Assembly (NCBI GenBank): GCA_049516875.1
Contig: JBEKSS010000007.1
Location: forward strand, 160,001-224,000
From: Candidatus Bathyarchaeia archaeon
GTDB taxonomy: Archaea; Thermoproteota; Bathyarchaeia; Bathyarchaeales; Bathycorpusculaceae
Direction: 5' to 3'
DNA length: 64,000 nucleotides
Of this stretch, positions 13,690 through 63,112 are shown in pieces (position 1 is the stretch's first letter; each line of letters begins with the position of its first letter). The notes beneath the pieces were generated by a model. The model worked only from the letters and a program-made list of their open reading frames with translations, did no database searches and was not told the origin of the DNA. The translations under genes were made by a program, and so were the position numbers.

Positions 13690-14409
13690 ATGCGGGTCGA
13701 GGCTGTGCTTTTTGATCTTTTCGACACTCTGCTGCTGCTTGAGCCTGCAGAAGTTTACTATGAGCCTTGCTTGAGGAGGCTTCATGAATCTTTGGTCGAA
13801 AATGGGATCGAGGTCGCTTTTGAGGATTTCAGCCGCGTCTACTTCGAGGTTCGGGATAAATATTATTCCGAGTCTCGCCAGAGCCTGGAGGAACCCCACT
13901 TCAACGTTCGGGTTGCCCAGACACTGCAGAAGCTCGGTTTCAATCTTGATGTCTCCAACCCAATTGTGTCAGGGGCAACGGGGGCGTTTGCAGACGAATT
14001 CATGCGTTACGTAAGCATAGACGACGATGCGATCAATGTGCTGCAGAAACTATGCGGAAAATACAAGCTTGGCTTAATATCAAATTTCGGTATCCCCGAA
14101 TGTGGTAGACAGCTCCTAAGCCGTTTTGGTTTGAGCAGGTTTTTCGATTTGATAGTGATTAGCGGGGAAGTTAACCAGAGAAAGCCTAGCCCCAAAATCT
14201 TTGAGAGGGCATTGGATGCTTTGAACGTGCACCCTTTAAAAGCCGTGTTCATTGGAGACATGCTGGATTTAGACATCATAGGCCCAAAAAAAGTTGGCAT
14301 GAAAACCATCCTGATAGAAAGAAGACCCATGCAAGATCACGCTGAGGTTAAACCAGACAAGGTTGTCAAAAGTCTAACTGAGCTCTTGAACATTCTCGAT
14401 GATTGCTAA
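13690..14409 (+). CDS. HAD-superfamily hydrolase
   Basis: FDLFDTL, ISN, KP.P.IF, IGD.L..DI; ATG at 13690. Confidence 0.88.
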   Translation: MRVEAVLFDLFDTLLLLEPAEVYYEPCLRRLHESLVENGIEVAFEDFSRVYFEVRDKYYSESRQSLEEPHFNVRVAQTLQKLGFNLDVSNPIVSGATGAFADEFMRYVSIDDDAINVLQKLCGKYKLGLISNFGIPECGRQLLSRFGLSRFFDLIVISGEVNQRKPSPKIFERALDALNVHPLKAVFIGDMLDLDIIGPKKVGMKTILIERRPMQDHAEVKPDKVVKSLTELLNILDDC

Positions 14410-14569
14410 CCGAAGAAAAAGACACCAAGCGCGTGCCATATCGTGACGAATAGAAATGCGCGCTTATATTAGCATTATTTCCGCTCGCATTTCTCAAATC
14501 TGGACGCTCTGTCCGCTTCTGCCATATCATTCCATACACGCATGTTTGTGAACATAGACAAGATTGGTG

Positions 14570-15871
14570 TTATATCAGTAGTTTCTTTTTTGCGAGATAT
14601 CTTCTTGTTTCCCGGTACGCTTCTATTCTTTGTTTGGCGGTGAAATCTGCGGTTTCGAAAACGGGGTAGGTGTCTTCAACGTCGTCTACGGGCCAGTTCA
14701 AAAGCTCCTCCCGATCGTAGCCAAGCCAGTGCCCGCTCTTGTCTACCCAACACCAGAACTCGGTCCCAGGAATGGGCGTAGCCAAGCTCAGATGAACTCC
14801 GTCAACCTTGATTCGCTCAACAAACCTCCTTATCTTGTCAACAACTTTCACAGTGTCGCCTGGATTCCCAATCATGAGAAAAACATTAGCCTTGATTCCA
14901 GCTTCATGCGTCAGCATGGTTGCCTTGTCCACTTGATCTAGAGCTATGCCTTTCTTAATTCTATTCAGAACCTCAGGGTCTACTGATTCAACACCGTAGT
15001 TGATGGCTGTGCAGCCTGCCTTCTTCATTTTTATCAGTAGCCCTTCGGTTACAGAGTCAACCCTTATGCCGTTCCATAAGTAAAAGCCAAGCTTCCATTT
15101 CTTGGCAATTATTCCGTCAAGAATCTTCTCAGCCCTGTCCAAATCAAACGTGAAATTATCGTCCAGAAAACTCAGGCCATTAACTCCATAGTGCTTTCTC
15201 AAGTGCTCGATTTCTGTCAACACGTATTCGGGGCTGTGACCACGCCAGCGCCTACCATAAACCGAACGCGAACAGAAAGCACACTGATAAGGGCAACCCC
15301 TAGAAGTAAAAAGAACCCCGCCATTATCACCGTAAGACTTCATAGGCAGCTTTTCTCTGGCAGGAAAAGGCAAACCATCTAAAGCCTCAACGGGATCCCT
15401 TGAAGGATTACTCCTAGTCTTGCTTCCATGGTGGAAAATCAAGCCGTTAACATCACTTAGATCCTGCTTGTTCTGCAATCTTTCCAAGAGTTCAACAAAA
15501 GTAACCTCGCCTTCGCCAACAACAACCGCGTCGATTTCCCGGTGCCTAACTAGCATCGCCTCACCCATTATACTGGCATATGGACCACCGACAACTACAA
15601 AACACTCAGGAAAATGAGTCTTCACTTTGCTAACGACAGCAAGAGCCTGACGGGCATTTCCAATTGCAGAGGAAACCCCAACAACTTCAGGCCTCTCACG
15701 AGACAAAGACTCTTCGAGAGCGACTGAAGACTCAACGTTCAAGTCGATGATTTTCGCTTCAAATCCTTTATTCTTCAACATGGCCGCCAGATAGCCTAAT
15801 CCAAGAGGGGGAACCCGAAACAAACTCTTTCCAACGGGCTGAACCAAGACAGCTTTCATGATATCCAACAA
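14570..15871 (-). CDS. B12-binding radical SAM protein
   Basis: PPLGLGYLAA, VVGGPYAS, GEGE, TSRGCPYQCAFC. Confidence 0.9.
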   Translation of the reverse strand: MLDIMKAVLVQPVGKSLFRVPPLGLGYLAAMLKNKGFEAKIIDLNVESSVALEESLSRERPEVVGVSSAIGNARQALAVVSKVKTHFPECFVVVGGPYASIMGEAMLVRHREIDAVVVGEGEVTFVELLERLQNKQDLSDVNGLIFHHGSKTRSNPSRDPVEALDGLPFPAREKLPMKSYGDNGGVLFTSRGCPYQCAFCSRSVYGRRWRGHSPEYVLTEIEHLRKHYGVNGLSFLDDNFTFDLDRAEKILDGIIAKKWKLGFYLWNGIRVDSVTEGLLIKMKKAGCTAINYGVESVDPEVLNRIKKGIALDQVDKATMLTHEAGIKANVFLMIGNPGDTVKVVDKIRRFVERIKVDGVHLSLATPIPGTEFWCWVDKSGHWLGYDREELLNWPVDDVEDTYPVFETADFTAKQRIEAYRETRRYLAKKKLLI

Positions 15872-16061
15872 CTAGCAGGAAATACCAAATAAGCCTGCCG
15901 TTAACAGTCCAAGCCCGCTTTAGTGTTGATGATACAGGAAATGATAGATACATCAAAGAAGGAACGAAGAAACCTAAAATTGTCCTCAATTCCAGAAGTA
16001 ACAAGACGCGTGTTTGATGATTATCTGTTTAAGAGTCCAAGGCGTTCGCGGGATTGGCCAG

Positions 16062-16442
16062 TCATGTTCTTGTTATTACGATAGTAGCGGTCGCGCCCAT
16101 GTCGGCGCTGACAGTGAAAACGTATGGCCCGTTTTGGGGGACTGTCCATCCGAAATTGTAGAAGGTTTGAGATTCTTGGTCTAGTAGTTTTACAGTTGGG
16201 GAGTTCTGCTGTGCGGCTGCTAAATTCACGAGTTGGCCGTTGCCTGAAACTTGGATTTGCAGTTGGTCGCCTTTGTTGAGTGCGAGATTGTATTGTGTTT
16301 CGTAGTCATTTTGAGTAAGAACGACAGTTTCGTTCAGAAGGACAGTTGGCTGCGTGGGATGAGCTACCCGTGGGGCCAAAAACATGAGGCTTAACACTAT
16401 GATAGCCAATGCAACGAGGAGAGATTGGACTTGGGTCATCAA
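16062..16442 (-). CDS. Exported/anchored small beta-sandwich protein
   Basis: N-terminal hydrophobic helix followed by a beta-rich domain. Confidence 0.55.
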   Translation of the reverse strand: MMTQVQSLLVALAIIVLSLMFLAPRVAHPTQPTVLLNETVVLTQNDYETQYNLALNKGDQLQIQVSGNGQLVNLAAAQQNSPTVKLLDQESQTFYNFGWTVPQNGPYVFTVSADMGATATIVITRT

Positions 16443-16611
16443 GGTGTTTCTTGTAACCTCTTTCTGATCTTGGAGGAATTTTACTAGTTGTTTAGGAGCG
16501 ATTATGAGGTTTATGAAGAATCGATATAGATGCTGTATTCAGATTCTGGATATTCCTTCTGAAACATGATTTGGCGATAAGCGCTTTGTGTGTGCACGAA
16601 TAGGTGTGTGT

Positions 16612-17775
16612 CTATTCAGTGAGCGAATGATGCCAGTTGATTATGTATTCGGGGAGCCTGAGACCTCTTTCGCCCAGTCTCTCAACCAGTCTCACGGGCA
16701 ACGGGCTCAAAACATACGCAGCCCTCATGTAAAACCTCCTAGGTTGCCCCGGCTTGACTTCCTCCTCCATGCCTATGTGGAGGTCTGACTTTTCTTTTAG
16801 AGTGGACTTTCTAGTTCCAGTGATTGACAAAACTGTTCCGTTCATTTTCTTCAATATTTCACACCACGCTATGACAGGTTTGGTCTCGCCAGAGTAAGAA
16901 ACCAAGATTTCCAGGTCACCTGGCCTTGGCGGAGGAGTGTTTACACCCCTAGTGATGTAAACGTTGTCTCCGAGTGTGCTCTTGATGTGAAAGAGTCTTA
17001 CGGCAGCCATCTTGACTATCTCGTTTGCCGTACCTTTTCCACCAAGAAAGACGTCTGTCCGTTTTTCAAGGATGTCTATAAGTCGTGAGTAGGTTTCAGA
17101 TTCCGTTGTCGAGTCGATTATTGGTCCGAGCTTGGCGAACTCTTCTTCGCAGAGCTGAAGTATCTCATGTGCCTCAAGGTTTCGAAACATTGCCTCGGTC
17201 ATCATGCATAGAAGGAGGAGGCTTCCCAGCTCGAAGATGTCTCCCATGATGCCTGTCTCGCTGTAGTCGAGGGAGGGTTTGGCTCTACCTCGCCCTATCA
17301 ATTCGACAACGTGTCCGCATTTGTCGACAATCTCTGCGAGTGGTGAGTTCAAGTTGGAGGTTATGAGCCCCATGGAGAACTTGGAAGACTTCTTCTCGCC
17401 GATGTATTTTGAGAGGTCTTGGGCCATCACCAACGGATCGCCCGACACACCGCTTCCAGAGTTTATCAAGAGCAGGGTCTTGTTGTACCGCCTTTCGAAC
17501 TCGGCTGCAGCGTCATACATGTTCTTCCCCGGAAACCCTGGGTCGTCGGGAGTCAACACAACCTTATTTCTCCAGCCTATGTGGCTGATTGCTATTTGAC
17601 TCATTGCCGCGTTGAGCGAATACAACGATCTGCCCGATCCCCCGCAAACCACGCAGTCGGCTGACTTCAAGTCTTCGTACAGTAATGCCAACTCTCTTTT
17701 TTTGATATTGAGCAAGTTGTCTCTGATTCTGTTGATGTATCCGATGCGACTGACCTTGTTCCTTATCTCTATCAC
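16612..17775 (-). CDS. Tandem SIS-domain sugar-phosphate isomerase-like protein
   Basis: GSGRS, INSGSG, MG..FE, then a second SIS with VSYSGET and ITG...S.L. Confidence 0.65.
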   Translation of the reverse strand: MIEIRNKVSRIGYINRIRDNLLNIKKRELALLYEDLKSADCVVCGGSGRSLYSLNAAMSQIAISHIGWRNKVVLTPDDPGFPGKNMYDAAAEFERRYNKTLLLINSGSGVSGDPLVMAQDLSKYIGEKKSSKFSMGLITSNLNSPLAEIVDKCGHVVELIGRGRAKPSLDYSETGIMGDIFELGSLLLLCMMTEAMFRNLEAHEILQLCEEEFAKLGPIIDSTTESETYSRLIDILEKRTDVFLGGKGTANEIVKMAAVRLFHIKSTLGDNVYITRGVNTPPPRPGDLEILVSYSGETKPVIAWCEILKKMNGTVLSITGTRKSTLKEKSDLHIGMEEEVKPGQPRRFYMRAAYVLSPLPVRLVERLGERGLRLPEYIINWHHSLTE

Positions 17776-17924
17776 GCTCGACTTGATCCAAGACTCGGCG
17801 ATTCTATATTTATCTTATGCGCACTAATTCAGGTCCTACCTCGCCAGAATCATGTATGTCCGACATAAACTTTTTTTGTTGGCTTTGCCTTTTGCTTTGA
17901 CCAGATGTGTTGTGGAAAGCGTAA

Positions 17925-18923
17925 GTGAAGCTTTTGGAAAAGGCTATTGAAACGAGTGAGCTTACAAGGCGTTTTGGCGGACTTGTGGCAGTTGACAAGC
18001 TCAACATTTCCGTTGAGCGGGGGGAAGTCTTCGGTCTGTTAGGGCCTAACGGTGCGGGGAAGACGACGACGATTTCGATGCTTTGCACTATTTTGAAGCC
18101 CACTTCGGGTTCGGCGAGGGTTAACGGTTTTGACGTTGTGAAGCAGGATACGCAGGTACGGAAGTCGATTGGCATTGTTTTTCAGGATCCAAGCATTGAT
18201 GACAGGCTTACGGGCAGGGAGAACCTTTACATGCACGCTAATCTGTATGGTGTGCCGCCGGGCGAGCAGAAGTCGCGCATTGACAGGGTTTTGAAGTTGG
18301 TTGAGCTTGAGGACAGGGCTGACGATCTCATGCGAACCTACAGTGGCGGGATGAGGCGTCGGTTAGAGATTGCAAGGGGGTTGATTCATTATCCGAAGGT
18401 TTTGTTTCTAGATGAGCCGACGATTGGGCTTGATCCTCAGACGCGGGAGCACATTTGGTCGTACATTGAGGATTTGAGGAAGGCTCATGATATTACTGTG
18501 GTTTTGACGACGCATTACATGGAGGAAGCGGACAGGCTTTCTGACCGTATAGCGATTATGGATTACGGTAAGATCGTGGCTTTGGACACGCCTGCTAAGC
18601 TTAAGGATACGCTTGAAGGCGACGTCATAACCGTCAAGACTAAGGAGGCTGCGAAGCTTTCTTCTGTTGTTGCTGTTACTGCAGGTGTTCTGAGGGCCAA
18701 TATAGTTGGCGATGGGCTTGAACTCACGGTTCGTGGTGGAAGGGCTCTTTTGCCCAGGATAGTGGAAGCCGCGGCGAAAAACGGAGTTTTTGTTGAGTCG
18801 GTTTCTCTGCGCGAGCCGAACCTTGCAGACGTTTTCTTGCATTACACTGGTCGTGCGATTCGGGCTGAAGGCGGTGATGAGCTTCACGGTTTGTCAGCGA
18901 TAAGGAGGAGGCGAATCAAATGA
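17925..18923 (+). CDS. ABC-2 (DrrA-like) ATP-binding subunit
   Basis: GPNGAGKTT, YSGGM, LDEPT.GLD. Confidence 0.9.
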   Translation: MKLLEKAIETSELTRRFGGLVAVDKLNISVERGEVFGLLGPNGAGKTTTISMLCTILKPTSGSARVNGFDVVKQDTQVRKSIGIVFQDPSIDDRLTGRENLYMHANLYGVPPGEQKSRIDRVLKLVELEDRADDLMRTYSGGMRRRLEIARGLIHYPKVLFLDEPTIGLDPQTREHIWSYIEDLRKAHDITVVLTTHYMEEADRLSDRIAIMDYGKIVALDTPAKLKDTLEGDVITVKTKEAAKLSSVVAVTAGVLRANIVGDGLELTVRGGRALLPRIVEAAAKNGVFVESVSLREPNLADVFLHYTGRAIRAEGGDELHGLSAIRRRRIK

Positions 18924-19681
18924 CGGAGATCAGGGGCATTTACACGCTTTGGCTGCGTGAAATCAAACGTTACCTTAGGGACAGGGCGAGAATCGTGAGC
19001 AGCTTCGTCCAGCCGTTGCTTTGGCTGGTCATATTCGGCAGTGGCATCCGCTTCTCAGCAACTCAAATAGGCAACTTGACAACTCAGCAGTACATCTTCC
19101 CCGGAATTATCGGGCAGACGCTTCTGTTCACTTCAATGTTTATGGGCATATCTGTCATATGGGACAGAGAATTCGGTTTTTTGAAGGAGATACTTGTGGC
19201 ACCGATTTCACGTTTCTCAGTTTTCTTGGGCAAGATGTTGGGCGACAGTACGGATGCTGTGATCCAGGGAGTTATCGTTTTCGTGCTGGGTCTGCTGTTG
19301 GGTATAAGGTTGAATCTTCTGATGTTTTTAGAGGTTTTGCCAATCATGATTCTTGTAACGTTCGGACTGGTGAGCATAGGGCTCACAGTGGCCAGTTTCA
19401 TAGACAGCCTTGAGAGCTTCGGAGTAATACAGAGCTTCATAAACCTCCCCCTCTTCTTTCTCAGCGGCGCCCTTTTTCCACTACGCGGAGACATTCCAAT
19501 CTGGTTGCAAATCGCCTCAAGTTTCAACCCGCTAACCTACGGCGTGGACGCTTTGAGAACCATCATCTTGGGCAACGCATGGCCACCCTTGCACCCTCTA
19601 TACTACAACATCCTAATGATATGCGTCTTTGACGTTGCCATGATGACCATCGGAACTCTCGCCTTCAGCAGAAGAAAATAG
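18920..19681 (+). CDS. ABC-2 permease
   Basis: WDREFGFLKEILVAP, FLSGALFP, NPLTYGVD; ATGA overlap. Confidence 0.9.
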   Translation: MTEIRGIYTLWLREIKRYLRDRARIVSSFVQPLLWLVIFGSGIRFSATQIGNLTTQQYIFPGIIGQTLLFTSMFMGISVIWDREFGFLKEILVAPISRFSVFLGKMLGDSTDAVIQGVIVFVLGLLLGIRLNLLMFLEVLPIMILVTFGLVSIGLTVASFIDSLESFGVIQSFINLPLFFLSGALFPLRGDIPIWLQIASSFNPLTYGVDALRTIILGNAWPPLHPLYYNILMICVFDVAMMTIGTLAFSRRK

Positions 19682-41194: not shown

Positions 41195-41863
41195 TTAGTC
41201 TCTGCTTGCCAGTATCACGATGTAGTCAGCTGTGTCTGCGCACATGTCGGCGGCTTGTTCGAGGAATTCAATCAGGTCGTCGAATATCACCATGGCGCCG
41301 ATGTTCATTTGTTGTCCATACTTGATGAATGATGCCTTGGTTTTGAGGTAGTCTTCGTCGATTTTGTGTTCGATTTCTTCAACCTTTTCGGCACCTGCTA
41401 TGGCTTCAGCCGGGGCTACTGTGATTTTTTCTATGCAGCCACGGAGGGCTTGGGCGCAGTCTACTAGTAGAGAGGTCATGTGCACGGTCTTCTCGTAGAG
41501 TTCCTGTGGGAGCCGAGTGTCTGCAAGCATTTCCATGCATCGTGCCGCGTCTTTCACGTGGTCGGCGAGGGTGTCGAGCCTTTTTACGAGGTGGAGCAGG
41601 TCTTCTCGGTAATCAGCGAATAGTGCTGCGCCCTTGGATAGTTCCTTGAAGACCTCTGTTCGAAGGTTATCAACTTCTTCTTCCTCTTTGAAAAGGTTCT
41701 CGATGCGTTGTATTCCTTCTTTTTCGTGTCCTTCTGAAATGCTTCGCATCGCTTGATTAAGAAGGGTTACGGTGTCGAGGGCCTTCGTTATCTGATCCTG
41801 AGCCAAGTCTAAGGCTTTGGTTCTGCGGCGCCTTTCAAACCAAGCATAACTTCGTTTTTCCAT
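41195..41863 (-). CDS. DUF47 / PhoU-like phosphate transport regulator
   Basis: Two EE..D repeats, REDLL.L...LD..AD, E..AD...D.AD. Confidence 0.85.
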   Translation of the reverse strand: MEKRSYAWFERRRRTKALDLAQDQITKALDTVTLLNQAMRSISEGHEKEGIQRIENLFKEEEEVDNLRTEVFKELSKGAALFADYREDLLHLVKRLDTLADHVKDAARCMEMLADTRLPQELYEKTVHMTSLLVDCAQALRGCIEKITVAPAEAIAGAEKVEEIEHKIDEDYLKTKASFIKYGQQMNIGAMVIFDDLIEFLEQAADMCADTADYIVILASRD

Positions 41864-41975
41864 GCTTGTATCTCCATTTACAATATTTTTGGCGCGTTCG
41901 CTTATAACCTTTCCCAGAACCTGCAGAGCGATGTCGCCCTGGGATTACGTGCATGCGACTTCAGTTTCGGCGTTT

Positions 41976-42104
41976 ATGTTGGGGTTTGAGGCCTTGTGTT
42001 TGAGTACTCAATTCGTGATTTCTTTGAGTGTCAAAACGATGTTGAAGTATGTTGGTTTCATGCTTCTGTTTGCTCAATTCGTGATTTTTTTGAGGCTCAG
42101 AAAA
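41976..42104 (-). repeat. Dispersed ~127-bp element, copy 2 (inverted)
   Basis: 41999-42037 is the exact reverse complement of 36635-36673. Confidence 0.85.
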
Positions 42105-42334
42105 TGTGTGCTGTGGTGACGGTGGGTTGATGTTTTTTGTGGGCAGGCTAGGCAGAACGATTCTGAGCTGGACTTTTTTGGAACTGGAATGGGATCCTGG
42201 ATTGGTTGTGGTTGATGCTTTGTTTGCGTTACATCTTTTGTTTCCGTGTTTTTCGCTTGTAGAGAAAATGGTGGATGAGAAGGGAGATCGCTCCTCTGGA
42301 TAACGCGGTGTAGCGCGCGCACGTGCTGAGGCTT

Positions 42335-42796
42335 TCATGAGTTGTCGTTCTTTTCTTCCAGCCAGTAGGCCTTTTTTTCTCCTTGTTTGGTCAGCACGTG
42401 TTCCTTCTTGAAAATGGGGGCTTGGTTCTTGTATCTTTCGACGGCTTCTTCTAGGACAGGGAAGATGTTTTGGCGATGGGAGCCTGCGACCAAGACGTAC
42501 ACTAGGTCTTCGCCGACGTTGAACTCTCCCAGTAAATGGTGGATTTGAACGTCTGTTATTCCCGGTTTTTTTCGCAGGTCGTCGCAGATATTCGTCAGTG
42601 TTTGATTTGCTTTTTCTTCATAGGCTTCCAGTTCCAGTTTCTGAACTTTTTCGCCTTTCTTCGCTTCTCCCCGGACGATTCCGATGAACAGTGTGATTGC
42701 TCCGGCCTTTTTGAAGCTGGGTTCGTTCTTGACGTTGTTTATCATGTCAAGAAGAGAGAATGTTCCTTTTTGATGTACTCCCGCTCGGTTCATCAT
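42335..42796 (-). CDS. moaE: Molybdopterin synthase catalytic subunit
   Basis: GAI..F.GIVR, LE.EAYE, H..G...VGE, HR, PIFKKE. Confidence 0.9.
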   Translation of the reverse strand: MMNRAGVHQKGTFSLLDMINNVKNEPSFKKAGAITLFIGIVRGEAKKGEKVQKLELEAYEEKANQTLTNICDDLRKKPGITDVQIHHLLGEFNVGEDLVYVLVAGSHRQNIFPVLEEAVERYKNQAPIFKKEHVLTKQGEKKAYWLEEKNDNS

Positions 42797-42848
42797 GATG
42801 GCACCAGACTGTTTTTTGTTGGCTTCGTGAGATATATGTTCTGTTTGG

Positions 42849-43883
42849 TCAGGTTGTCTTTATGTATTTGCGCATGTCCTCTGGCGTGGCGGAAGGTACC
42901 GGTAGGTCCTTCATCGTGAATAACCCGGCTGGTGCGTTGATTACTTTGGGAATTGCGTTGACGATGACGGCTACTGTTCCTGTGTCACCGTGGACGCATG
43001 GCTGGATTTTCTGGTTTATGTTTGGAACGCCTTTGATTGTTATGGCGTCGTATTCTTCTTCGGCGCCTATGTACGCTTGGAAATCCAGAGCTATCACTTC
43101 TCTGTTTTTCATTATGCCCTTTGCTTTCTGTTTCAGACCGGCCACTTTTCCCACATTGACTTTTATGTCCTTGCTTTCAACAGCCTTCTTAGCTATTACT
43201 GGCTCAACGGACTGAACGAGTATCCTGTCAAGCTTCCACGCTAGGGCGTTGGCGATCATGGCGATGGACTGTTCGAGGCCTACGTGTCCAGTGATCTGCT
43301 TCTTCTCGATTTTCTGTTGAAATTCTTCGACGGTCAATCCTGCTCCTATCTTTTTCTGAAACGGCAGACGCCTTGTTCCAGCGTTCATAACTCTTGTGAC
43401 CTCGATTTTTTCTATCTTTTCGCAAGCAGAAGTGAGTGTCAAGACTAACGTGTCCATCAGAAATCCAGGGTTTATCCCTGCACCTAAGACCGTTGCGTCA
43501 TGCTTCTTAGCTAGGGCGTCGAGTTTTTCTGCGAGTTTGGGTTCAGAAACATATGGGTAAGACAGCTCTTCGCATGTGGAAACGACGTTTACGCCGTGTT
43601 TCAGGATGGAGGCTATTTGTGGATATGTGTCTTTAAGGAAGGATGAGGTTGCGTGGATGGCGATGTCCACCCTTGTCTTCTGGAGCACGGATTCAAGGTT
43701 TTCTGAAATCTTGATTCCGACTTTATGTTTCAGGCCCAAGACTTCGCCTAGGTCTTTTCCGACCTTATCCTTGGCTACGTCCACTGCGCCGACTATTTCT
43801 ACTCCTTCTTTTTCCAGCAAGAACTTGGTGATGAACCCGCCGACGGCACCGATTCCGTATGATATTGCCTTTATCTTTTCCAT
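42849..43883 (-). CDS. 2,4-diaminopentanoate dehydrogenase-like (DapB-N) oxidoreductase
   Basis: YGIGAVG, NVVSTCEEL.YP, G.GINPGFLMD, GHVGL..S, GD.GT. Confidence 0.75.
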   Translation of the reverse strand: MEKIKAISYGIGAVGGFITKFLLEKEGVEIVGAVDVAKDKVGKDLGEVLGLKHKVGIKISENLESVLQKTRVDIAIHATSSFLKDTYPQIASILKHGVNVVSTCEELSYPYVSEPKLAEKLDALAKKHDATVLGAGINPGFLMDTLVLTLTSACEKIEKIEVTRVMNAGTRRLPFQKKIGAGLTVEEFQQKIEKKQITGHVGLEQSIAMIANALAWKLDRILVQSVEPVIAKKAVESKDIKVNVGKVAGLKQKAKGIMKNREVIALDFQAYIGAEEEYDAITIKGVPNINQKIQPCVHGDTGTVAVIVNAIPKVINAPAGLFTMKDLPVPSATPEDMRKYIKTT

Positions 43884-44039
43884 GAATGTCTCGTCCCCTT
43901 CGGAGGTTATGTCATATTCGGGTTTGACCCTATAAAAGTGTGTTTGAGGCAGCGCTTGATTTGGATGTTCATTTAAAACCTTTACGTTTGTAAACTTTTA
44001 TATGTATGGCATCGCCCAATACTGCAGAGGGCACAAGGC

Positions 44040-45482
44040 TTGGAAACCTCAGGAACTGCTGTCTCAAAACAAGTTCTTCAAAGGATTCTGGATGCCGACA
44101 AACTCAAGTACTGCTTCGAATGCGGCATATGCACGGCCAGCTGTTCCATGGCTGAGATGCTTGGAAACGACTACAACCCCCGGGGGCTTCTTGAACAGAT
44201 TTATCTGAGCCCTGAGACCGTGCTGAGCTCAGACGAGCTTTGGCTGTGCGCTTGGTGTTATCGCTGCCAGAAGCGTTGTCCCCAGGCTCTGAAACTGCCT
44301 GAAATATTCCTAACCATTCGGTCAATCGCTAAGGAACAGGGCAACACTAAGCCTTTTGAAAAGGCCCTCCAAAAAATCGTTAAGAACATTCCTCTCCCGC
44401 TAGTCACAACATTGGTTTGCTTCCACCCAGAACGTGCTGGGCTGGAAAACGAGAAGGTGCTGGAAAAGATTGGGCAGATTCGCGGAGAATGGCTTAAGAC
44501 CAAGAAAGCCGACAGATCAACGAGGGCGGCAGAAAAGGTCGCAGTCATAGGCTCCGGACCTGCGGGACTTACAGTTGCGTATGAATTGAGCAAGAAGGGA
44601 TATGCAGTCACCCTTTTTGAAGCCCTTCCAGAACTCGGCGGAATGCTGAGAAAGTGCATACCTGAGTATCGTTTGCCCAAGAAGGTTTTGAACGAGGAGA
44701 TCCAGTTCATAAAGGACTTGGGCGTCGAAGTCAAAACGGGTACGGAAGTTGGCAAGGATGTTTGTTTTGAGGACTTTCAGAAGGAGGGTTATAAGGCCGT
44801 TTTTGTTGGTGCTGGTGCCCATAAGAGTCAAAGACTGAGGGTTGAAGGCGGAGATTTGAACGGGGTAACTCACGCTCTTGACTTTTTGTGGAGTTCAAAT
44901 TCTGGCAAGAAGATGGAAATCGGCAAGAACGTTGTCGTTGTCGGTGGCGGAAACGTTGCTATTGATGCTGCAAGAACTGCTCTGTGCCAGAGTGCAAAAG
45001 ACGTGACGATACTTTATCGTCGGTCAAGAGAGGAGATGCCGGCAAACATGTGGGAGGTCAAGGAGGCAGAGGCTGAAGGCGTCAAAATCGAGTTTTTGGT
45101 TTCGCCTAAGAGGATTTTGGGCGAGAAGGGAAGGGTTTCTGCCATAGAGTGTGTTCGCATGCAACTGGGCGAGCCGGACGAGACTGGCAGGAGAAAAGCG
45201 GTTCCTTTGGAGGGTTCGGAGTTTAAGCGGGAGACCGATATGGTGATTCTTGCGATAGGCGAGGTTCCTGACTTAAGGTTTTTGCCGAAGGAGATTGAGC
45301 TGAACGATGATGGCACGGTTTGGGTTAACCCGATAACGATGGAAACCAGTCTGTTAGGTGTTTTTGCGGGTGGAGACGCGGTGACGGGGCCTGCGTCGGT
45401 GATTGAAGCGATTAGAGATGGAAAGCGTGCCGCAGAATCAATTGAGTGTTACTTGAAGTCTGAGGGGAGGGCTAAGCAATGA
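44040..45482 (+). CDS. HdrC-like 2[4Fe-4S] domain fused to a GltD/NfnB-like FAD/NAD(P) oxidoreductase
   Basis: CFECGICTASC, LWLCAWCYRCQKRCP, then GSGPAG, IPEYRLP, GGGNVA.D.AR, YRRS, FAGGD. Confidence 0.8.
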   Translation: METSGTAVSKQVLQRILDADKLKYCFECGICTASCSMAEMLGNDYNPRGLLEQIYLSPETVLSSDELWLCAWCYRCQKRCPQALKLPEIFLTIRSIAKEQGNTKPFEKALQKIVKNIPLPLVTTLVCFHPERAGLENEKVLEKIGQIRGEWLKTKKADRSTRAAEKVAVIGSGPAGLTVAYELSKKGYAVTLFEALPELGGMLRKCIPEYRLPKKVLNEEIQFIKDLGVEVKTGTEVGKDVCFEDFQKEGYKAVFVGAGAHKSQRLRVEGGDLNGVTHALDFLWSSNSGKKMEIGKNVVVVGGGNVAIDAARTALCQSAKDVTILYRRSREEMPANMWEVKEAEAEGVKIEFLVSPKRILGEKGRVSAIECVRMQLGEPDETGRRKAVPLEGSEFKRETDMVILAIGEVPDLRFLPKEIELNDDGTVWVNPITMETSLLGVFAGGDAVTGPASVIEAIRDGKRAAESIECYLKSEGRAKQ

Positions 45483-47914
45483 CGGAGAAGAAGGAATCAC
45501 AGCCAAAGCAGGATGGACAGGTTCGCATCGGAGTCTACGTTTGTCACTGCGGCTTGAACATCGCGGGTTCGGTGGACTGTGAGGAGGTTGCCAAGTATGC
45601 TGCGACCTTGCCGAATGTTGTTTTGGCTCAGGACAATCGGTACACGTGTTCAGATCAGGGGCAGGCTGGGATAAAAAAGGATATTCAAGAGCAAAAGCTG
45701 AATCGCGTTGTGGTGGCATCATGTTCTCCCCGTCTTCACGAACCGACGTTTAGGAAGGCGTGTGAAGATGCCGGTTTGAACAAATATCTTTTTGAAATGG
45801 CTAACATCCGTGAACATTGCAGCTGGGTTCACCTGTACGATAAAGAAGCGGCCACGGAGAAGGCCAAGGACCTTGTGAAAATGGCTGTGGCCAAGGCTGC
45901 CCTGCTTGAGCCGGCGGTTGAGGCTGAGGTGCCGATCATTCGGAAAGCCTTGGTTATCGGCGGCGGCGTGGCCGGCATTCAAGCGGCTTTGGATCTTGCT
46001 GACACTGGTTACAAGGTGTACTTGGTTGAGAAGGAACCCAGCATTGGCGGGATGATGGCGAGGATCGACAAGACTTTCCCGACGATGGACTGTTCTATAT
46101 GCATTCTTGCGCCCAAGATGTCCGATGCGGGCCATCATCCAAACATTGAGCTCTTGACGAACAGTGAAGTTGCTGAAGTGAAGGGTTACATCGGCAACTT
46201 CCATGTAAAAGTGTCGAGGAAACCACGGTACGTGACAAAGGATTGTTCGGCTTGCGGAGACTGTGTGAAGGTCTGTCCTATCGTGACTCCGAACGAGTTC
46301 GACGTGGGTTTGGCAGTGAGGCATGGTATTTACACGCCTTTCGCTCAGGCTGTTCCGTCAACGTACATTATCGACATGAACTTGTGCCTCAACAAGGAAG
46401 GCGTCATCGTTTGTGACAAGTGCTTGAAGGCTTGTGAGAGGCAGGCGATAAGCTTCGAGATGAAGCCTGTGACCGAAGAGCTTGAGGTGGGTACGATAAT
46501 CGTGGCGACTGGAGCAGACGTGTTTGACCCCTCGGTCCTGCCTAACTACGGGTACGGCAAGATTCCGAACGTGATCACGTCTCTTGAGTTTGAAAGGTTA
46601 ATCAACGCTGGCGGGCCATCGGGCGGCCATTTGATAAGGCCTAGTGACAAGCAAATTCCCAAACGTGTGACTTTCGTTCAGTGCGTCGGTTCACGGTCGG
46701 ACAAGAGTGGAAGATTGTACTGTAGCAATGTCTGTTGCATGAACACGATTAAGGACAGCTTGTTGATTAAGGAACATTGGCCCGACACCGAGATCTACGT
46801 CTTTTACGTTGACATAAGAGCTTACGGCAAAGGTTTCGAGGACTTGTACAAGCGGGCTAGAAATGCAGGCGTGGTGTTCATCCGCGGACTACCAGCCGAG
46901 ATTATCGAGGACAGGAAAACGCATAACGTGTGGCTCATAGGCGAGAACACTCTGAGGAAGGAAGTGTACAGGATAAACGCGGACATGGTCATTCTCTCGA
47001 TAGGCTTAGAGGCAAGAAAAGACAGCGAGATGATTCAGCGTCTGCTGACGCTTTCAAGGAACCAAGATGGTTTCTTCTTGGAAGCACATCCGAAGCTTAG
47101 GCCTGTTGACGCGGCTACGGGCGGGGTTTTCTTTGCTGGTTGTGCTGAATCTCCCAAGGACATAAAAGACAGTGTGACTCAGGCCAGTGCAGCAGCAGGT
47201 CGTGCGGGCATCTTGATGGCAAAGGGACACGTGACTGTTGAAGCCATCACGCCCATAACTTATCCTGATAAGTGCAAGGCTTGTGGACTCTGCGTGAAGG
47301 TCTGCCCGTACAACGCGATAAGTTTGAACAAGGATTTGAAAAGAATAGAAGTCATTGAAGCAGCGTGCGGCGGCTGTGGCACATGCGCTGCAGAGTGCAA
47401 CTTCGGCGCCTTGACCCAAAAGCATTTCACAGACGAGCAGATAACGGCCCAGATAGACGCTATCACGGAGAATGAACCGGAGAAGAAGATCGTTGCTTTC
47501 TGTTGCAACTGGTGTTCATACGCTGGCGCGGACTTTGCGGGGGTCAGTAGAATGCAGTACCCGCCGAACGCACGGATCATAAGGACGATGTGTTCTGGAC
47601 GCGTTGCTCAGAAGTTTGTTGAGAGGGCTTTTGCAAGAGGAGCGGCGAGCGTGCTGGTGTCCGGTTGCCACCTAGGCGACTGCCACTACATTAACGCTAA
47701 TTATCAGACGCAGAAGCGTGTGGAGCGGTTATGGAAGAAGATGGAGCAGAACGGGTTGGACAAGCAGAGGCTGCAGCTTCTGTGGGCTTCAGCGGCAGAA
47801 GGCGAAAGGTTTGCTTCGAAAATGCGTGAGATGAAGACGATAGTAGAGAATGTTAAGCCTGAGGAGATTGAGAAGGCCAAGAAGGTTTTCTCCAAGGCTT
47901 TGGAGGGTGACTAA
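45479..47914 (+). CDS. hdrA: Heterodisulfide reductase A fused to MvhD
   Basis: VCHCG.NI, ANIREHCSWVH, GGGVAG, KTFPT.DC, QCVGSR, two ferredoxin inserts; C-terminal FCCNWCSY, MCSGR, GCH.GDCHY. Confidence 0.92.
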   Translation: MTEKKESQPKQDGQVRIGVYVCHCGLNIAGSVDCEEVAKYAATLPNVVLAQDNRYTCSDQGQAGIKKDIQEQKLNRVVVASCSPRLHEPTFRKACEDAGLNKYLFEMANIREHCSWVHLYDKEAATEKAKDLVKMAVAKAALLEPAVEAEVPIIRKALVIGGGVAGIQAALDLADTGYKVYLVEKEPSIGGMMARIDKTFPTMDCSICILAPKMSDAGHHPNIELLTNSEVAEVKGYIGNFHVKVSRKPRYVTKDCSACGDCVKVCPIVTPNEFDVGLAVRHGIYTPFAQAVPSTYIIDMNLCLNKEGVIVCDKCLKACERQAISFEMKPVTEELEVGTIIVATGADVFDPSVLPNYGYGKIPNVITSLEFERLINAGGPSGGHLIRPSDKQIPKRVTFVQCVGSRSDKSGRLYCSNVCCMNTIKDSLLIKEHWPDTEIYVFYVDIRAYGKGFEDLYKRARNAGVVFIRGLPAEIIEDRKTHNVWLIGENTLRKEVYRINADMVILSIGLEARKDSEMIQRLLTLSRNQDGFFLEAHPKLRPVDAATGGVFFAGCAESPKDIKDSVTQASAAAGRAGILMAKGHVTVEAITPITYPDKCKACGLCVKVCPYNAISLNKDLKRIEVIEAACGGCGTCAAECNFGALTQKHFTDEQITAQIDAITENEPEKKIVAFCCNWCSYAGADFAGVSRMQYPPNARIIRTMCSGRVAQKFVERAFARGAASVLVSGCHLGDCHYINANYQTQKRVERLWKKMEQNGLDKQRLQLLWASAAEGERFASKMREMKTIVENVKPEEIEKAKKVFSKALEGD

Positions 47915-47917
47915 GCT

Positions 47918-48196
47918 ATGCCTGAAAGGATTCGGCATGCTCCACTTGACTTGGAAAAGGTCAAGCCCGCAAAAGCGGAAATTCATCTGATCAAAGATGA
48001 GTGCAAGGGATGCGGTTACTGCATTGAATTCTGTCCGAAGAAGGTTCTAGAAGAATCAGATGAAATAAACGCTAGAGGTGTTCACCCGCCACGAATCGTG
48101 GATGAAAGCAAATGCATAATCTGCAGCTTCTGCAGTGCAGTCTGCCCAGATTTTGCAATTTTCGTGGTTGACAAAGAGAACAAGGAAGGGAAATGA
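47918..48196 (+). CDS. korD: 2-oxoacid:ferredoxin oxidoreductase delta subunit
   Basis: CKGCGYCIEFCP, CIICSFCSAVCPDFAI. Confidence 0.85.
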   Translation: MPERIRHAPLDLEKVKPAKAEIHLIKDECKGCGYCIEFCPKKVLEESDEINARGVHPPRIVDESKCIICSFCSAVCPDFAIFVVDKENKEGK

Positions 48197-48197
48197 T

Positions 48198-49349
48198 ATG
48201 CCCAAAGTGAAGAGTGGTTTAACAGGCGCGCATTTCATGAACGGCGACGTGGCCTGCGCTGAAGGCGCAATAGCGGCTGGTTGCAGATTTTTTGCCGGTT
48301 ACCCGATTACGCCTGCAACAGAAATTGCTGAACACCTGTCTCAGAGGATGCCCGAGTTTGGTGGAATCTACGTACAAATGGAAGACGAAATTGCATCATT
48401 GGCCGCTGTGATCGGCGCTTCCTATTCTGGTTTGAAAGCTATGACCGCCACTTCGGGACCTGGTTTCAGTCTTATGCAAGAAAACATTGGGCTTGCCGTG
48501 ATGACTGAGGCTCCATGCGTGATCGTGGACGTTATGCGTGGAGGGCCGAGCACTGGGCAACCTACATTGCCCGGGCAGCAGGATGTGATGCAGGCCAAGT
48601 GGGGTTCACATGGTGATTATGGAATTATAGCTCTGACGCCCAGTTCGGTTCAGGAGATGTTCGATTTGACCGTTGAAGCCTTCAATCTTTCTGAAGCTTA
48701 CCGTGTTCCGACTTTGCTGATGGGAGACGAGATCGTCGGCCATATGTGGGAGAAAGTGGTGATTCCTTCGGCAGACAAGATAAAGACTGTCAACCGTAAG
48801 AAGCCGAATGTGCCGCCTGAGAAGTACATGCCTTTCAAGCCTGACGACGATTTGGTGCCCCCCATGGCATGCTTCGGAGAAGGATATCATTTCCACGCGA
48901 CGGGCTTGACGCACAATGAGCATGGTTATCCGCGGACGTCAAGTTCCGAAGTCCAATCTAAGCTGGTCAACCGGTTGTGTGACAAGATTCAGAAGAACGC
49001 GGACAAGATAGTCCGGGTTGAAGAGGTCATGCTGGAAGATGCGGACGTTGTAGTCGTAGCTTACGGCATAGTTGCTCGCGCAGCTTTGAGTGCGATTAAA
49101 AAAGCGCGAGAGAAAGGGATCAAAGCGGGGCTTCTGCGATTGATAACCTTATGGCCTTTCCCAGAGGAACAGGTCGCAAAAGCTGCAAAAAGCGCAAAGG
49201 CGATTGTCGTTGCCGAAATGAACTGCGGACAAATGGTGCGAGAAGTTGAAAGAGCCGCAAAAGAGACTCCTGTTGTGTTTCTCTCGAAGTTGGGCGAGGA
49301 ACCTCACACTCCTCTAGAGATCCTTGAGGCGATAAGGAGGAAAAGATAA
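48198..49349 (+). CDS. korA: 2-oxoacid:ferredoxin oxidoreductase alpha subunit
   Basis: FAGYPITP, QMEDE, TATSGPG.SLMQE, RGGPSTG. Confidence 0.9.
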   Translation: MPKVKSGLTGAHFMNGDVACAEGAIAAGCRFFAGYPITPATEIAEHLSQRMPEFGGIYVQMEDEIASLAAVIGASYSGLKAMTATSGPGFSLMQENIGLAVMTEAPCVIVDVMRGGPSTGQPTLPGQQDVMQAKWGSHGDYGIIALTPSSVQEMFDLTVEAFNLSEAYRVPTLLMGDEIVGHMWEKVVIPSADKIKTVNRKKPNVPPEKYMPFKPDDDLVPPMACFGEGYHFHATGLTHNEHGYPRTSSSEVQSKLVNRLCDKIQKNADKIVRVEEVMLEDADVVVVAYGIVARAALSAIKKAREKGIKAGLLRLITLWPFPEEQVAKAAKSAKAIVVAEMNCGQMVREVERAAKETPVVFLSKLGEEPHTPLEILEAIRRKR

Positions 49350-50206
49350 TGGTCCAAGAAACTGTCCCTGTGGTCGTGCATCCGTTTTCAAAGTATTTGA
49401 GAGCCGACATGATGCCGCACATATGGTGCCAGGGCTGCGGCAACGGTGTGCTGTTGAACTGTTTCGTACACGCGTTGGATGAGCTTCAGACGGATTTGAA
49501 CAAGCTAGTCGTTGTCTCAGGCATCGGCTGTATTGGACGAACGGCTGGGTACATGAATGCCGATTCGTTCCACACGACACACGGTCGTGCGTTGGCTTTT
49601 TCGACCGGAGTGAAGCTGGCTAACCCCGAGCTGGAGGTCGTGGTCATAAGTGGTGATGGTGACCTCTTCGCGATAGGCGGGAACCATTTCATACACGCAG
49701 CCAGGAGAAACATTGGAATTAAGGTTCTATGCGCCAACAATCTGAACTATGGTATGACTGGAGGGCAACAGGGTCCTACGACGCCGCTTGAATCGGTAAC
49801 GACTACGAGCCCGTACGGGAACATTGAGCATCCGTTCAACCTTGTGCATTTGGCGGCGGCATCCGGAGCCACATACGTTGCCAGATGGACGTCCTTGCAC
49901 GTGCGCCAGTTGACACAGTCCATTAAGAAGATGTTGCAGAAGGAGGGTTTCTGTTTTGTTGAAATGCTTTCACCTTGCCCTGAAATTTATGGTCGATACA
50001 ACAAGATGCGGTCAGGGCTTGAGATGATGAGCTGGTTCAAGAAGGCTTCAGTTGTTGAAAACTTCTCAGATCCATCCAAAGCAGAGATTACACAGGAGAA
50101 AATAGCGGTGGGCGAATTCGTGGACATTGAAAAACTGAGCTATGAGAAGATGGTGCATGAGAAGATTTCCAAGATTAACGAGAAGGCGATTGAAGGAGTG
50201 AGTTAA
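49349..50206 (+). CDS. korB: 2-oxoacid:ferredoxin oxidoreductase beta subunit
   Basis: WC.GCG, SGIGC, HTTHGR, GDGD..AIGGNH, YGMTGGQ. Confidence 0.9.
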   Translation: MVQETVPVVVHPFSKYLRADMMPHIWCQGCGNGVLLNCFVHALDELQTDLNKLVVVSGIGCIGRTAGYMNADSFHTTHGRALAFSTGVKLANPELEVVVISGDGDLFAIGGNHFIHAARRNIGIKVLCANNLNYGMTGGQQGPTTPLESVTTTSPYGNIEHPFNLVHLAAASGATYVARWTSLHVRQLTQSIKKMLQKEGFCFVEMLSPCPEIYGRYNKMRSGLEMMSWFKKASVVENFSDPSKAEITQEKIAVGEFVDIEKLSYEKMVHEKISKINEKAIEGVS

Positions 50207-50207
50207 C

Positions 50208-50750
50208 ATGCGAGTCGAGATCAGGTTTGCAGGTTTCGGCGGTCAAGGAATAATCAAGTCTGGAATAATCGTGGCGGCGGCAGCCTGCATCCACGCTGGA
50301 AAAAACGCGGTTCAGACGCAGTCCTACGGTCCTGAATCACGCGGTGGAGCATGTAAGTCGGAGGTTGTGATATCAGAAGAAGAGATTGATTTTCCGAAGG
50401 TGGTTGAACCTGACGTGCTTGTGCTAATGTCTCAGCACGCCTACAATGATTATGCTGAGGACGTGAAGTCTGGTGGTACCGTGATATTGGATCCTGGTAT
50501 GATTCCCCGCGAGAAGGATTTGAAGAACATGCGAGTATACCGTGTTCCAGCGACGAAAATCGCTGAAGAATTGGGTCGAAGAATAGTTGCCAACATCGTC
50601 ATGATTGGCGCATTTACTGCAATCACCGGGTTGTTGGATGAAAAAGCTGTGAAAGAGTCTATTAAAGAGAATATTCCGAGGGGTACGGAAGAGTTGAATT
50701 TAGCGGCTTTTGAGAAAGGATTTGAATACGGAAAAACTGCTAAAAGATAG
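50208..50750 (+). CDS. korC: 2-oxoacid:ferredoxin oxidoreductase gamma subunit
   Basis: AGFGGQG, SYGPESRGG, ANIVMIG. Confidence 0.9.
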   Translation: MRVEIRFAGFGGQGIIKSGIIVAAAACIHAGKNAVQTQSYGPESRGGACKSEVVISEEEIDFPKVVEPDVLVLMSQHAYNDYAEDVKSGGTVILDPGMIPREKDLKNMRVYRVPATKIAEELGRRIVANIVMIGAFTAITGLLDEKAVKESIKENIPRGTEELNLAAFEKGFEYGKTAKR

Positions 50751-60739: not shown

Positions 60740-62987
<2,248 letters not shown>

Positions 62988-63112
62988 AGCCCAAAGAACC
63001 TCTGATAGTTCATGTATGAAGAAGAATTCTAGACGCATACATGCAGATATAAAAGTTTAGGAGCAAGATCCCGAAACATTCCTTTCCCAGAGAACTACTG
63101 TGTTGGACAACC

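Follow-up and report, generated by a model that had tools for sequence, protein, structure and literature searches.

We identified, in the genome of a Candidatus Bathyarchaeia archaeon (assembly GCA_049516875.1), a six-gene operon that joins an HdrC-like/NfnB-type flavoprotein fusion to an HdrA-MvhD protein and to the four subunits of a 2-oxoacid:ferredoxin oxidoreductase (OFOR), KorDABC. The stretch analysed, hereafter the window, comprises positions 160,001-224,000 of contig JBEKSS010000007.1 (64,000 nt), and coordinates refer to it unless another contig or locus is named. On balance we slightly favour the view that the operon encodes a single redox unit of three modules, predicted to be the oxidoreductase KorDABC, a bifurcating HdrA-MvhD of the HdrA2 type, and an HdrC/NfnB subunit that handles NADP(H).

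The six open reading frames (ORFs) lie on the forward strand at 44040-50750 (Table 1). An earlier reading of this DNA (the original prediction) had described six tightly coupled genes, and indeed no junction has a gap or overlap above 4 nt, consistent with translational coupling. The frames of P0001 and P0002 overlap by 4 nt, the hdrA stop at 47914 is followed by the korD start at 47918 (gap 3 nt) and the korD stop at 48196 by the korA ATG at 48198 (gap 1 nt), base 49349 is common to the end of korA and the start of korB, and the korB stop at 50206 precedes the korC start at 50208. For korA, the ATG at 48198 is preferred to the GTG at 48135, which gives the longest ORF but overlaps korD.

The first gene product, P0001, had been read as an HdrC-type domain joined to a GltD module for NAD(P) and flavin adenine dinucleotide (FAD), and matches in Pfam, NCBIfam and the Protein Data Bank (PDB) confirm this. 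Its N-terminal part contains two CxxCxxCxxxC motifs (C25/28/31/35 and C70/73/76/80), with all eight cysteines invariant in an alignment of 50 homologues, and Pfam Fer4_8/Fer4_17 at residues 22-84. The same region matches the HdrC chain 5odc_C (E 4.7e-18, residues 20-114) and two HdrC models, TIGR03290 (residues 19-114, E 1.3e-19) and NF041779, in both cases below the model's cut-off (70.6 against 160 bits and 53.8 against 350 bits). Folded separately, residues 1-160 gave a predicted local distance difference test score (pLDDT) of 84, and PDB ranks 1-6 for this model were all HdrC chains (E 5e-4 to 3e-3, template-modelling (TM) score 0.51-0.52, with a large root-mean-square deviation), followed at E near 1 by helical ferredoxins of the SdhB/FrdB type; no NfnB chain was among the PDB fold matches listed for these residues.

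The remainder of P0001 is of the NfnB/GltD type. Pyr_redox_2 covers residues 166-461 (Pfam, E 8.8e-33), GltD/NfnB-type NCBIfam models match from residue 75 on, and the module aligns with PDB 9n5u_A at E 2e-96. The AlphaFold (AF2) model of the full-length protein (pLDDT 88.4, predicted TM score 0.90) has as its best PDB fold match the NfnI large subunit 5jca_L (E 6.5e-41, 441 columns, TM 0.70). An FAD motif, GSGPAG, is present, as is a second dinucleotide motif, GGGNVA (GXGXXA), followed by YRRS, and the alignment places GGGNVA and YRRS also in the NfnB-like paralogue of the window. We take YRRS, presumably as in NfnB and GltD, to have a role in NADP(H) binding. Together with the GXGXXA rule for dinucleotide motifs (section 5 of PMC12054007), it points to a protein that would bind NADP(H) rather than NAD(H).

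The original prediction had further held that the module's own iron-sulphur (Fe-S) motif is eroded, which also stands. Pfam detected no Fer4_20 (PF14691) in P0001 at E <= 0.01, against 4.9e-43 for the window's NfnB-like paralogue. When P0001 is aligned with this canonical paralogue (60740-62161, reverse strand), its GltD Fe-S region reads CAWCYRCQKRCP ... NIPLPLVTTLVCFHPERA. The second GltD motif is thereby down to C127, in the stretch VCFHPER, whose C127, H129, P130 and R132 do not vary across 23 sequences, and the first has turned into the second of the two ferredoxin-type motifs in the HdrC-like domain. Orthologues of P0001 begin at the same position as its TTG start. One orthologue (L030; G011 contig 19, 20409-21839), from a genome that is 64% complete, carries a single in-frame TAG.

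P0002 exceeds the cut-off of 1100 of the NCBIfam HdrA2 model NF040770 (1262.2 bits, residues 16-798). Its residues 15-662 match HdrA 5odc_A at E 3e-244 and residues 666-797 match MvhD 5odc_D at E 1e-44, the Pfam FlpD/MvhD span being residues 671-791. Mean column identity over 24 orthologues is 83% and the cluster cysteines are all invariant, the FAD site and the MvhD [2Fe-2S] cluster included, which argues against HdrA as a passive relic.

P0003-P0006 constitute a four-subunit OFOR, with POR_N and PFOR_II in the alpha subunit, a thiamine pyrophosphate (TPP) domain in beta, POR in gamma and two [4Fe-4S] sites in delta (Pfam). KorA and KorC pass the cut-offs of PRK08659 (591 bits, cut-off 411) and PRK08537 (249.5 bits, cut-off 235); KorB stays under that of NF007207 (265.9 bits, cut-off 364), with TPP_enzyme_C present, and reading by eye finds in it a GDGD...N motif and four cysteines for a [4Fe-4S] cluster (C27, C30, C61 and C210). 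The nearest solved relatives of KorA are the alpha subunit of the P. furiosus 2-keto acid:ferredoxin oxidoreductase (1yd7_A, 5.6e-134) and 2-oxoglutarate synthase (8ys5_A, 3.9e-84). On this nearest-relative basis KorDABC would resemble 2-ketoglutarate:ferredoxin oxidoreductases, with 2-oxoglutarate as a candidate substrate. The best PDB sequence matches of KorD, which was present in all Kor-linked loci, are polyferredoxin modules (FwdF/FmdF/MvhB) of Hdr supercomplexes (9sfi_T 7e-22, FwdF 5t5i_F 7.5e-18, 7bkb_K 1e-13; compare 7.5e-9 for the OGOR delta subunit 8ys5_D). NCBIfam, with a score below the cut-off, thus speaks for KorD as an OFOR delta subunit, and the PDB sequence matches speak for a polyferredoxin module. 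The 2.4-Mb genome holds seven OFOR alpha-type (POR_N) genes, among which only the operon copy has an HdrA neighbour.

A word-indexed search with P0001 returned at least 7996 scored relatives; among the 120 listed, 119 cover 93-100% of the query at 71-96% identity, and the few with NCBI names are Bathyarchaeia. Among representatives of clusters at 50% identity, 3941 proteins matched at E <= 1e-30, and the best 150 of these comprise nine clusters with the same architecture of ~480 aa, along with many larger proteins, up to ~1500 aa, that embed a P0001-like module. Full-length orthologues were found in 18 of the 41 genomes of the window's order. A class-wide sample of 301 genomes yielded them in 27, from 23 of 108 genera, which is a patchy distribution. 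The original prediction had itself considered that the fusion might be a one-off or a fragment of a known HdrL/Hyl architecture. A one-off is excluded by these counts, while homology to HdrL is real, at 38-44% identity (see below).

An HdrA-family gene adjoins the P0001 orthologue in all 39 loci fetched. Among the 17 orthologous loci obtained from the 41-genome search, HdrA-MvhD (78-95% identity) is the next gene without exception; two of these contigs end within hdrA, and all 15 that reach past it continue with KorD and then the other Kor genes in the same order (13 complete, 2 cut by the contig end). Class-wide we collected 22 further loci from 20 genomes, each with an HdrA-family gene adjacent. 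Nine carry Kor genes, seven in the complete six-gene order, one cut within korA, and one (L140) with a closer KorD homologue (71% identity) beside hdrA and a second korD (47%) together with korABC on the other strand. Two more are cut within hdrA, and three are paralogues followed by a permuted, HdrL-like HdrA.

The remaining eight of the 22 lack KorABC. Seven of these encode a polyferredoxin of 316-327 aa beside the module, confirmed by Pfam in six and by ORF length and tblastn in the seventh; we take a polyferredoxin gene to lie beside hdrA2 of Methanosarcina acetivorans as well, a likeness to these Kor-less relatives. Locus L150 (genome G116) encodes a homologue of KorD that is 96 aa long and 41% identical, with motifs and length alike, and its HdrC-GltD/HdrA-MvhD/ferredoxin module (1290-9160) sits within a carbon monoxide dehydrogenase/acetyl-CoA synthase (CODH/ACS) operon, between cdhB and cdhC. 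Two Prismane/CdhA-like ORFs and CdhB precede the module there and CdhC follows it, the CdhA-like gene being apparently split (218 + 364 aa). The link to a 2-oxoacid oxidoreductase made in the original prediction is therefore conserved in closer relatives but not universal, since polyferredoxin or CODH/ACS takes the place of Kor in distant ones; with these replacements, the module's neighbour always encodes low-potential, ferredoxin-level proteins. The strong conservation of the six-gene linkage makes a functional unit likely.

A Kor-first order, KorD-A-B-C-HdrC/GltD-HdrA/MvhD, was found on four metagenome contigs (L152-L155) with the representative P0130, 49% identical, as query. One member of the P0130 cluster is named Bacteroidales by NCBI, and in L155 the korB match is interrupted by ~1.9 kb of other sequence. 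We placed these rows in a quick maximum-likelihood tree that has 55 rows and the window's NfnB-like paralogue as its root; a length filter had excluded L140. Bacterial HdrL-like modules fall outside the archaeal group (support 99), inside which one clade (support 96) contains the Kor-linked genes and, as their sister clade (95), the polyferredoxin/CODH rows. The Kor-first clade branches from within the archaeal, Kor-linked rows; its branch is long, and support reaches only 86-87. This position suggests that its operon may have been acquired by transfer from archaea.

HdrA bifurcates electrons, and HdrC normally wires it to HdrB. Starting from the domain identities, conservation and gene linkage described above, we infer protein contacts, a third partner and possible directions of flow as follows. 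Judging from the solved geometry of HdrABC, the HdrC-like domain of P0001 would dock on HdrA at the HdrC site, so that the HdrC branch of HdrA would end at NADP(H) instead of the HdrB disulfide site, with the clusters of this domain relaying electrons to or from the NfnB-type FAD and NADP(H). The low-potential ferredoxin branch of HdrA would be served by the KorD-type ferredoxin, which in this clade probably doubles as the oxidoreductase's delta subunit. The unit would thus exchange electrons among 2-oxoacid/acyl-CoA + CO2, NADP(H) and a third partner that meets HdrA at its flavin or at MvhD.

Such a partner is needed by a bifurcating flavin, and must be sought elsewhere in the genome, since none is encoded in the operon. 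Textbook potentials are about -500 mV for 2-oxoacid/acyl-CoA + CO2, -320 mV for NADP(H) and -414 mV for H2/H+. Our preferred candidate is H2/H+, by way of the MvhAG hydrogenase encoded on contig 10, because it would keep the canonical port usage of HdrA and balance energetically, -414 mV lying between -320 and -500 mV. F420, as in Methanosarcina HdrA2, would be a second choice, made possible by the presence of CofE genes. A fumarate-reductase-like (Frd)/HdrBC set, which lies beside the operon in genome G241, was rejected as a general third partner, as the window's genome has no close orthologue of it (best tblastn identities 28-35%). In a peptide fermenter the unit could merge electrons from NADPH and 2-oxoacids into H2; in reverse, at high H2, it could drive reductive carboxylation.

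Several observations weigh against a single bifurcating unit of this kind. Besides the missing third partner, there is the small energy span that NADP+ leaves when it is the acceptor at high potential; HdrABC usually has an acceptor near -140 mV. The hydrogenase cluster on contig 10 has an MvhD, HdrA, HdrB and HdrC of its own, and MvhA does not discriminate, for among the 41 genomes searched it occurs in all 18 that have the operon and in 18 of the 23 that lack it. KorD, although OGOR_delta is its top-ranked NCBIfam model, reaches only 68.6 bits of a cut-off of 125, and the split arrangement of L140 means that the ferredoxin may be a partner of HdrA and not of Kor, or of Kor and not of HdrA. 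Finally, specificity for NADP over NAD rests on sequence motifs only.

A tighter form of the single unit is a tentative prospect: KorD would be shared as delta subunit and as the ferredoxin arm of HdrA, and the six proteins would form one supercomplex in which flavin-based bifurcation is hard-wired, without free ferredoxin, to an enzyme that makes or breaks C-C bonds. Among 2-oxoacid systems it would correspond to the Hdr-Fmd megacomplex of methanogens, NADP(H) replacing the heterodisulfide. If so, an energy-starved sediment archaeon could fix CO2 into 2-oxoacids from H2 and reductant at the level of NADPH or, alternatively, could recover the ~200 mV that is normally lost when 2-oxoacids reduce pyridine nucleotides.

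Among the explanations that dispense with bifurcation, the simplest is a plain 2-oxoacid:NADP+ oxidoreductase, in which electrons would run in line from Kor through KorD, the clusters and FAD of HdrA, the HdrC-like clusters and the NfnB-type FAD to NADP+, with HdrA-MvhD as a wire. The operon encodes no third substrate site, GltD-like genes adjoin OFOR genes without HdrA in other bacteria (L067, L100), and P0003-P0006 weakly match NCBIfam models of the Pad enzyme, all as this would predict. Analogues reportedly exist in the additional subunit with which phenylglyoxylate:NAD+ oxidoreductase binds NAD(P) and in the NADP+-reducing 2-oxoglutarate oxidoreductase of Azoarcus. We nevertheless consider it unlikely, because an 811-aa HdrA-MvhD kept at the mean identity given above, with its FAD site and [2Fe-2S] cysteines invariant, is a costly wire, ~200 mV per electron would be wasted, and the module also occurs without Kor, beside polyferredoxin or CODH/ACS.

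That last occurrence, in eight of the 22 class-wide loci, is at the same time what would be expected if the operon encoded two enzymes merely co-transcribed, with KorDABC as an ordinary oxidoreductase dependent on ferredoxin, HdrC-GltD/HdrA-MvhD as a separate soluble enzyme re-oxidising the ferredoxin pool (as an Nfn-like ferredoxin:NADP+ or a ferredoxin/NADPH:F420 enzyme) and a diffusible ferredoxin as their sole common link. M. acetivorans HdrA2 uses free ferredoxin and F420 (section 10 of PMC5296606), CofE genes are found in the window's genome, and its seven OFOR alpha-like genes lead one to expect a ferredoxin pool. Such a pair is about as doubtful as the plain oxidoreductase, however, given that the operon has no free ferredoxin gene, its sole ferredoxin being KorD, set between hdrA and korA with the gaps of 3 and 1 nt, that linkage of the six genes survives a changed gene order, and that a canonical NfnAB-like pair is already available 10 kb away.

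Least probable, in our judgement, is a scheme in which NADPH, as donor at mid potential, feeds in through the NfnB-type FAD and the HdrC-like clusters, and HdrA bifurcates, sending low-potential electrons by KorD to reductive carboxylation (2-oxoglutarate or pyruvate synthesis) and high-potential ones by MvhD to a separate acceptor, such as an HdrBC-linked fumarate-reductase-like enzyme: genes for FrdA-like, Fe-S, HdrB-like and HdrC-like proteins and a second HdrA-MvhD do lie directly upstream of the operon in G241, the same logic has been proposed for flx-hdr/kor/tfr clusters (PMC6315080), and the CODH/ACS-embedded and polyferredoxin variants resemble CO2-reducing supercomplexes, but the scheme swaps the canonical port roles of HdrC and MvhD and draws on the one such locus examined, whose Frd/HdrBC set lacks a close orthologue in the window's genome, as noted above.

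We compared the single bifurcating unit with known systems. The MvhADG-HdrABC and Fdh/Mvh-Hdr-Fmd(Fwd) supercomplexes (PDB 5ODC, 7BKB, 8RVU, 9SW6) have HdrA, MvhD and an HdrC-type dicluster domain in common with the operon, and in the methanogen supercomplexes FwdF/FmdF/MvhB modules, which KorD resembles, carry the low-potential electrons of HdrA to a CO2-reducing enzyme. The operon differs in having no HdrB disulfide site, in the fusion of HdrC to an NADP(H) flavoprotein and of MvhD to HdrA, and in the attached enzyme, a 2-oxoacid oxidoreductase in place of formylmethanofuran dehydrogenase, with no hydrogenase or formate dehydrogenase gene adjacent. P0002 has the same HdrA-MvhD fusion as HdrA2B2C2 of M. 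acetivorans (Yan, Wang and Ferry 2017, PMC5296606), whose HdrA2 model it passes; its partner here is an HdrC-NfnB fusion rather than HdrB2C2, providing a dedicated NADP(H) domain in trans. In M. acetivorans, HdrA2 alone links ferredoxin and F420, and NAD is no substitute (sections 6 and 10 of that paper).

The closest precedent is HdrL, a "heterodisulfide reductase/glutamate synthase fusion" followed by MvhD in Desulfobacterium autotrophicum, for which NADH oxidation was proposed in 2009 (PMC2702500). A profile scan of genome contigs listed 80 loci, not a census, among which at least 13 are bacterial HdrL-like loci with an HdrC-like N-terminus and the rest mostly generic GltD relatives. These 13, from Desulfobacteraceae, Smithellaceae, Dehalococcoidia and Bacillota, are alignable with P0001 over residues 15/25-475; HdrA segments follow the module directly in 10, and Kor genes were found in none of the 13. 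In HdrL-like proteins, too, HdrA and MvhD occur together with a GltD/NfnB module that binds NAD(P)H, whereas the module here is a separate 480-aa protein ahead of an unpermuted, canonical HdrA2, encoded by two overlapping genes and not as one polypeptide. With HdrL described in 2009 and its module homologous, the idea that HdrA can be wired to NAD(P)H predates this analysis. The original prediction of a possibly undescribed complex therefore stands in part: we found no description of an HdrC-NfnB/HdrA-MvhD/KorDABC operon in the literature searched, passages of PMC11237513, PMC9723716 and PMC5736913 included, although reviews of HdrA(BC) modules and paper supplements could list related clusters. 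New here, in the architecture predicted, are the splitting off of the module from HdrA, its conserved operon union with a 2-oxoacid oxidoreductase, and the swap of the latter for polyferredoxin or CODH/ACS.

Other unions of NAD(P)H and HdrA are the type III HdrA with inserted GltD, which in Bathyarchaeota adjoins mvhADG (Lyu et al., PMC12054007, section 7), and the HdrA-NfnB insertions of ANME-1 (PMC9012536). Type III proteins have GltD inserted into HdrA's ferredoxin domain, and here such a gene is apparently a separate one on contig 10. NfnAB, NfnABC and StnABC (PDB 5JCA, 9BOV, 9N5U, 8OH5) share with P0001 the whole-protein fold and the FAD and NADP(H) motifs, whereas its Fe-S domain is HdrC-like, with eight cysteines and without Fer4_20, and the operon encodes no NfnA partner. 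An HdrA-based module and a 2-oxoglutarate:ferredoxin oxidoreductase likewise share a cluster in sulfur-oxidising Gammaproteobacteria, where korABCD and tfrAB are interspersed with flxABCD-hdrABC in reductive tricarboxylic acid cycle clusters, and direct electron delivery from Flx-Hdr to the oxidoreductase has been proposed (Rubin-Blum et al. 2019, PMC6315080). Those clusters are bacterial and contain HdrBC and the Flx NADH dehydrogenase, whereas here Flx and HdrB are absent and NADP(H) would enter or leave through the HdrC-NfnB fusion.

Bathyarchaeia belong to the most abundant archaea of peat and anoxic sediments, and we know of no Bathyarchaeia energy-coupling enzyme that has been studied biochemically. 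HdrA is, to our knowledge, one of only four known flavin-bifurcation scaffolds, and has so far always been characterised with the thiol/disulfide site of HdrB. If the proposed unit is real, an HdrA without HdrB, with NADP(H) as its high-potential arm and a 2-oxoacid oxidoreductase (in relatives, CODH/ACS or a polyferredoxin) as its low-potential arm, would widen the chemistry that HdrA can drive, and its six genes would offer a compact, expressible test case for the channelling of low-potential electrons to CO2-fixing enzymes. Should it prove to be only a wire or a co-transcribed pair, it would still be a marker of how NADPH and ferredoxin are balanced in these organisms. The operon thus points to a redox machine worth biochemical test, rather than to an oddity of one genome.

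The original prediction had also found neither hdrB nor mvhAG. This holds for the operon, as Pfam and NCBIfam detected no CCG (HdrB), NiFe-hydrogenase or Flx-type domain in any of the six proteins, but not for the genome (2.43 Mb, 97% complete), in which hdrB, hdrC, mvhA, mvhG and mvhD are all present on contig 10; "HdrB-less" thus describes the operon and not the organism. Genes for CCG domains occur at four places and MvhD domains at five. The CCG gene nearest to the operon lies shortly beyond the end of the window, downstream of korC by ~13.7 kb, and the others are on contigs 1 and 10. The contig 10 cluster (L016, 56001-75000; ~7952-18995, reverse strand) encodes GcvH-like, GltD (572 aa, intact Fer4_20 and two ferredoxin motifs), MvhD-like (253 aa), HdrA, MvhD, HdrC, HdrB, MvhG, MvhA and HycI proteins. 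Its HdrA, of 1021 aa with a second flavoprotein domain, is apparently of type III. The forward strand of L016 (748-6555) encodes a thiol:fumarate-reductase-like pair. One member is an SdhA-type flavoprotein of 566 aa; the other, 521 aa long, joins an SdhB-like Fe-S protein to an HdrD-like part that has two CCG domains. After the pair come an aldehyde:ferredoxin oxidoreductase and a Fer4_11 protein.

Nearer to the operon, a canonical NfnB-like/NfnA-like pair (60740-63038, reverse strand) lies 10 kb downstream of korC. Beyond the window end (L017; contig 7, 222001-236000) we identified genes for a thioredoxin-reductase-like protein, for an HdrD-like protein of 443 aa with two CCG domains, for a second HdrA-MvhD and then for EtfB, EtfA and an acyl-CoA dehydrogenase. 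This second HdrA-MvhD (813 aa, 38% identical to P0002) lies 3.5 kb past the window end, beside the HdrD-like gene, and these genes make up a 30-kb stretch that is unusually rich in flavoproteins of the bifurcation type. Three to four CofE-family F420 ligase genes lie on contigs 9, 7, 1 and 3, one of them on the window's contig at 85586-86236; a domain search found no FrhB/FdhB-type domain in the genome.

Table 1. Position and identification of the operon genes, their domains and the putative upstream signals in the window
Feature	Position	Strand	Basis
Possible archaeal promoter and ribosome-binding region	43996-44031	+	by-eye reading
P0001, HdrC-like/NfnB-GltD-like fusion, 480 aa, TTG start	44040-45482	+	Pfam, NCBIfam, PDB matches, AF2 model
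HdrC-like domain of P0001, residues 20-114	44097-44381	+	two CxxCxxCxxxC motifs; 5odc_C, TIGR03290
Second GltD Fe-S motif remnant of P0001, residues 119-133	44394-44438	+	single Cys C127 kept, within VCFHPER
NfnB/GltD-type FAD and NADP(H) module of P0001, residues 163-475	44526-45464	+	Pyr_redox_2, 9n5u_A, alignments
P0002, HdrA2-type HdrA with C-terminal MvhD fusion, 811 aa	45479-47914	+	NF040770, PDB sequence matches
MvhD ([2Fe-2S]) domain of P0002, residues 666-797	47474-47869	+	PF02662 160 bits; 5odc_D
P0003, KorD-type 2x[4Fe-4S] ferredoxin (delta), 92 aa	47918-48196	+	OGOR_delta, PDB sequence matches
P0004, KorA (alpha)	48198-49349	+	PRK08659, 1yd7_A
P0005, KorB (beta), TPP-binding	49349-50206	+	TPP_enzyme_C, NF007207
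P0006, KorC (gamma)	50208-50750	+	PRK08537

Ahead of the TTG start of P0001, a possible promoter and ribosome-binding region consists of a TATA-like TTTTATAT (43996-44003) and GAGGG (44027-44031). A sigma-70 promoter and terminator scan gave signals at or below shuffle expectation, but uses a bacterial consensus that does not apply to an archaeon. The stretch matches DNA datasets from peat, wetland and freshwater-sediment metagenomes, and a public-read lookup listed no RNA dataset for it.

The upstream neighbour of the operon is a divergent gene for a 2,4-diaminopentanoate-dehydrogenase-like protein, and the downstream neighbours, ribosomal protein S3Ae and seryl-tRNA synthetase, lie on the opposite strand, so that the six genes form a self-contained block. 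The trio of PhoU_div, MoaE and 2,4-diaminopentanoate-dehydrogenase-like genes (41195-43883, reverse strand) flanks the operon in the same order in G241 (L151). There (contig 1, 5846-15385) an insert separates the diaminopentanoate-dehydrogenase-like gene from hdrC-gltD, synteny being otherwise identical; its minus strand encodes an FrdA-like flavoprotein of 551 aa, an Fe-S protein and two further proteins, one HdrB-like with a single CCG hit and one HdrC-like, and its plus strand the second HdrA-MvhD (788 aa).

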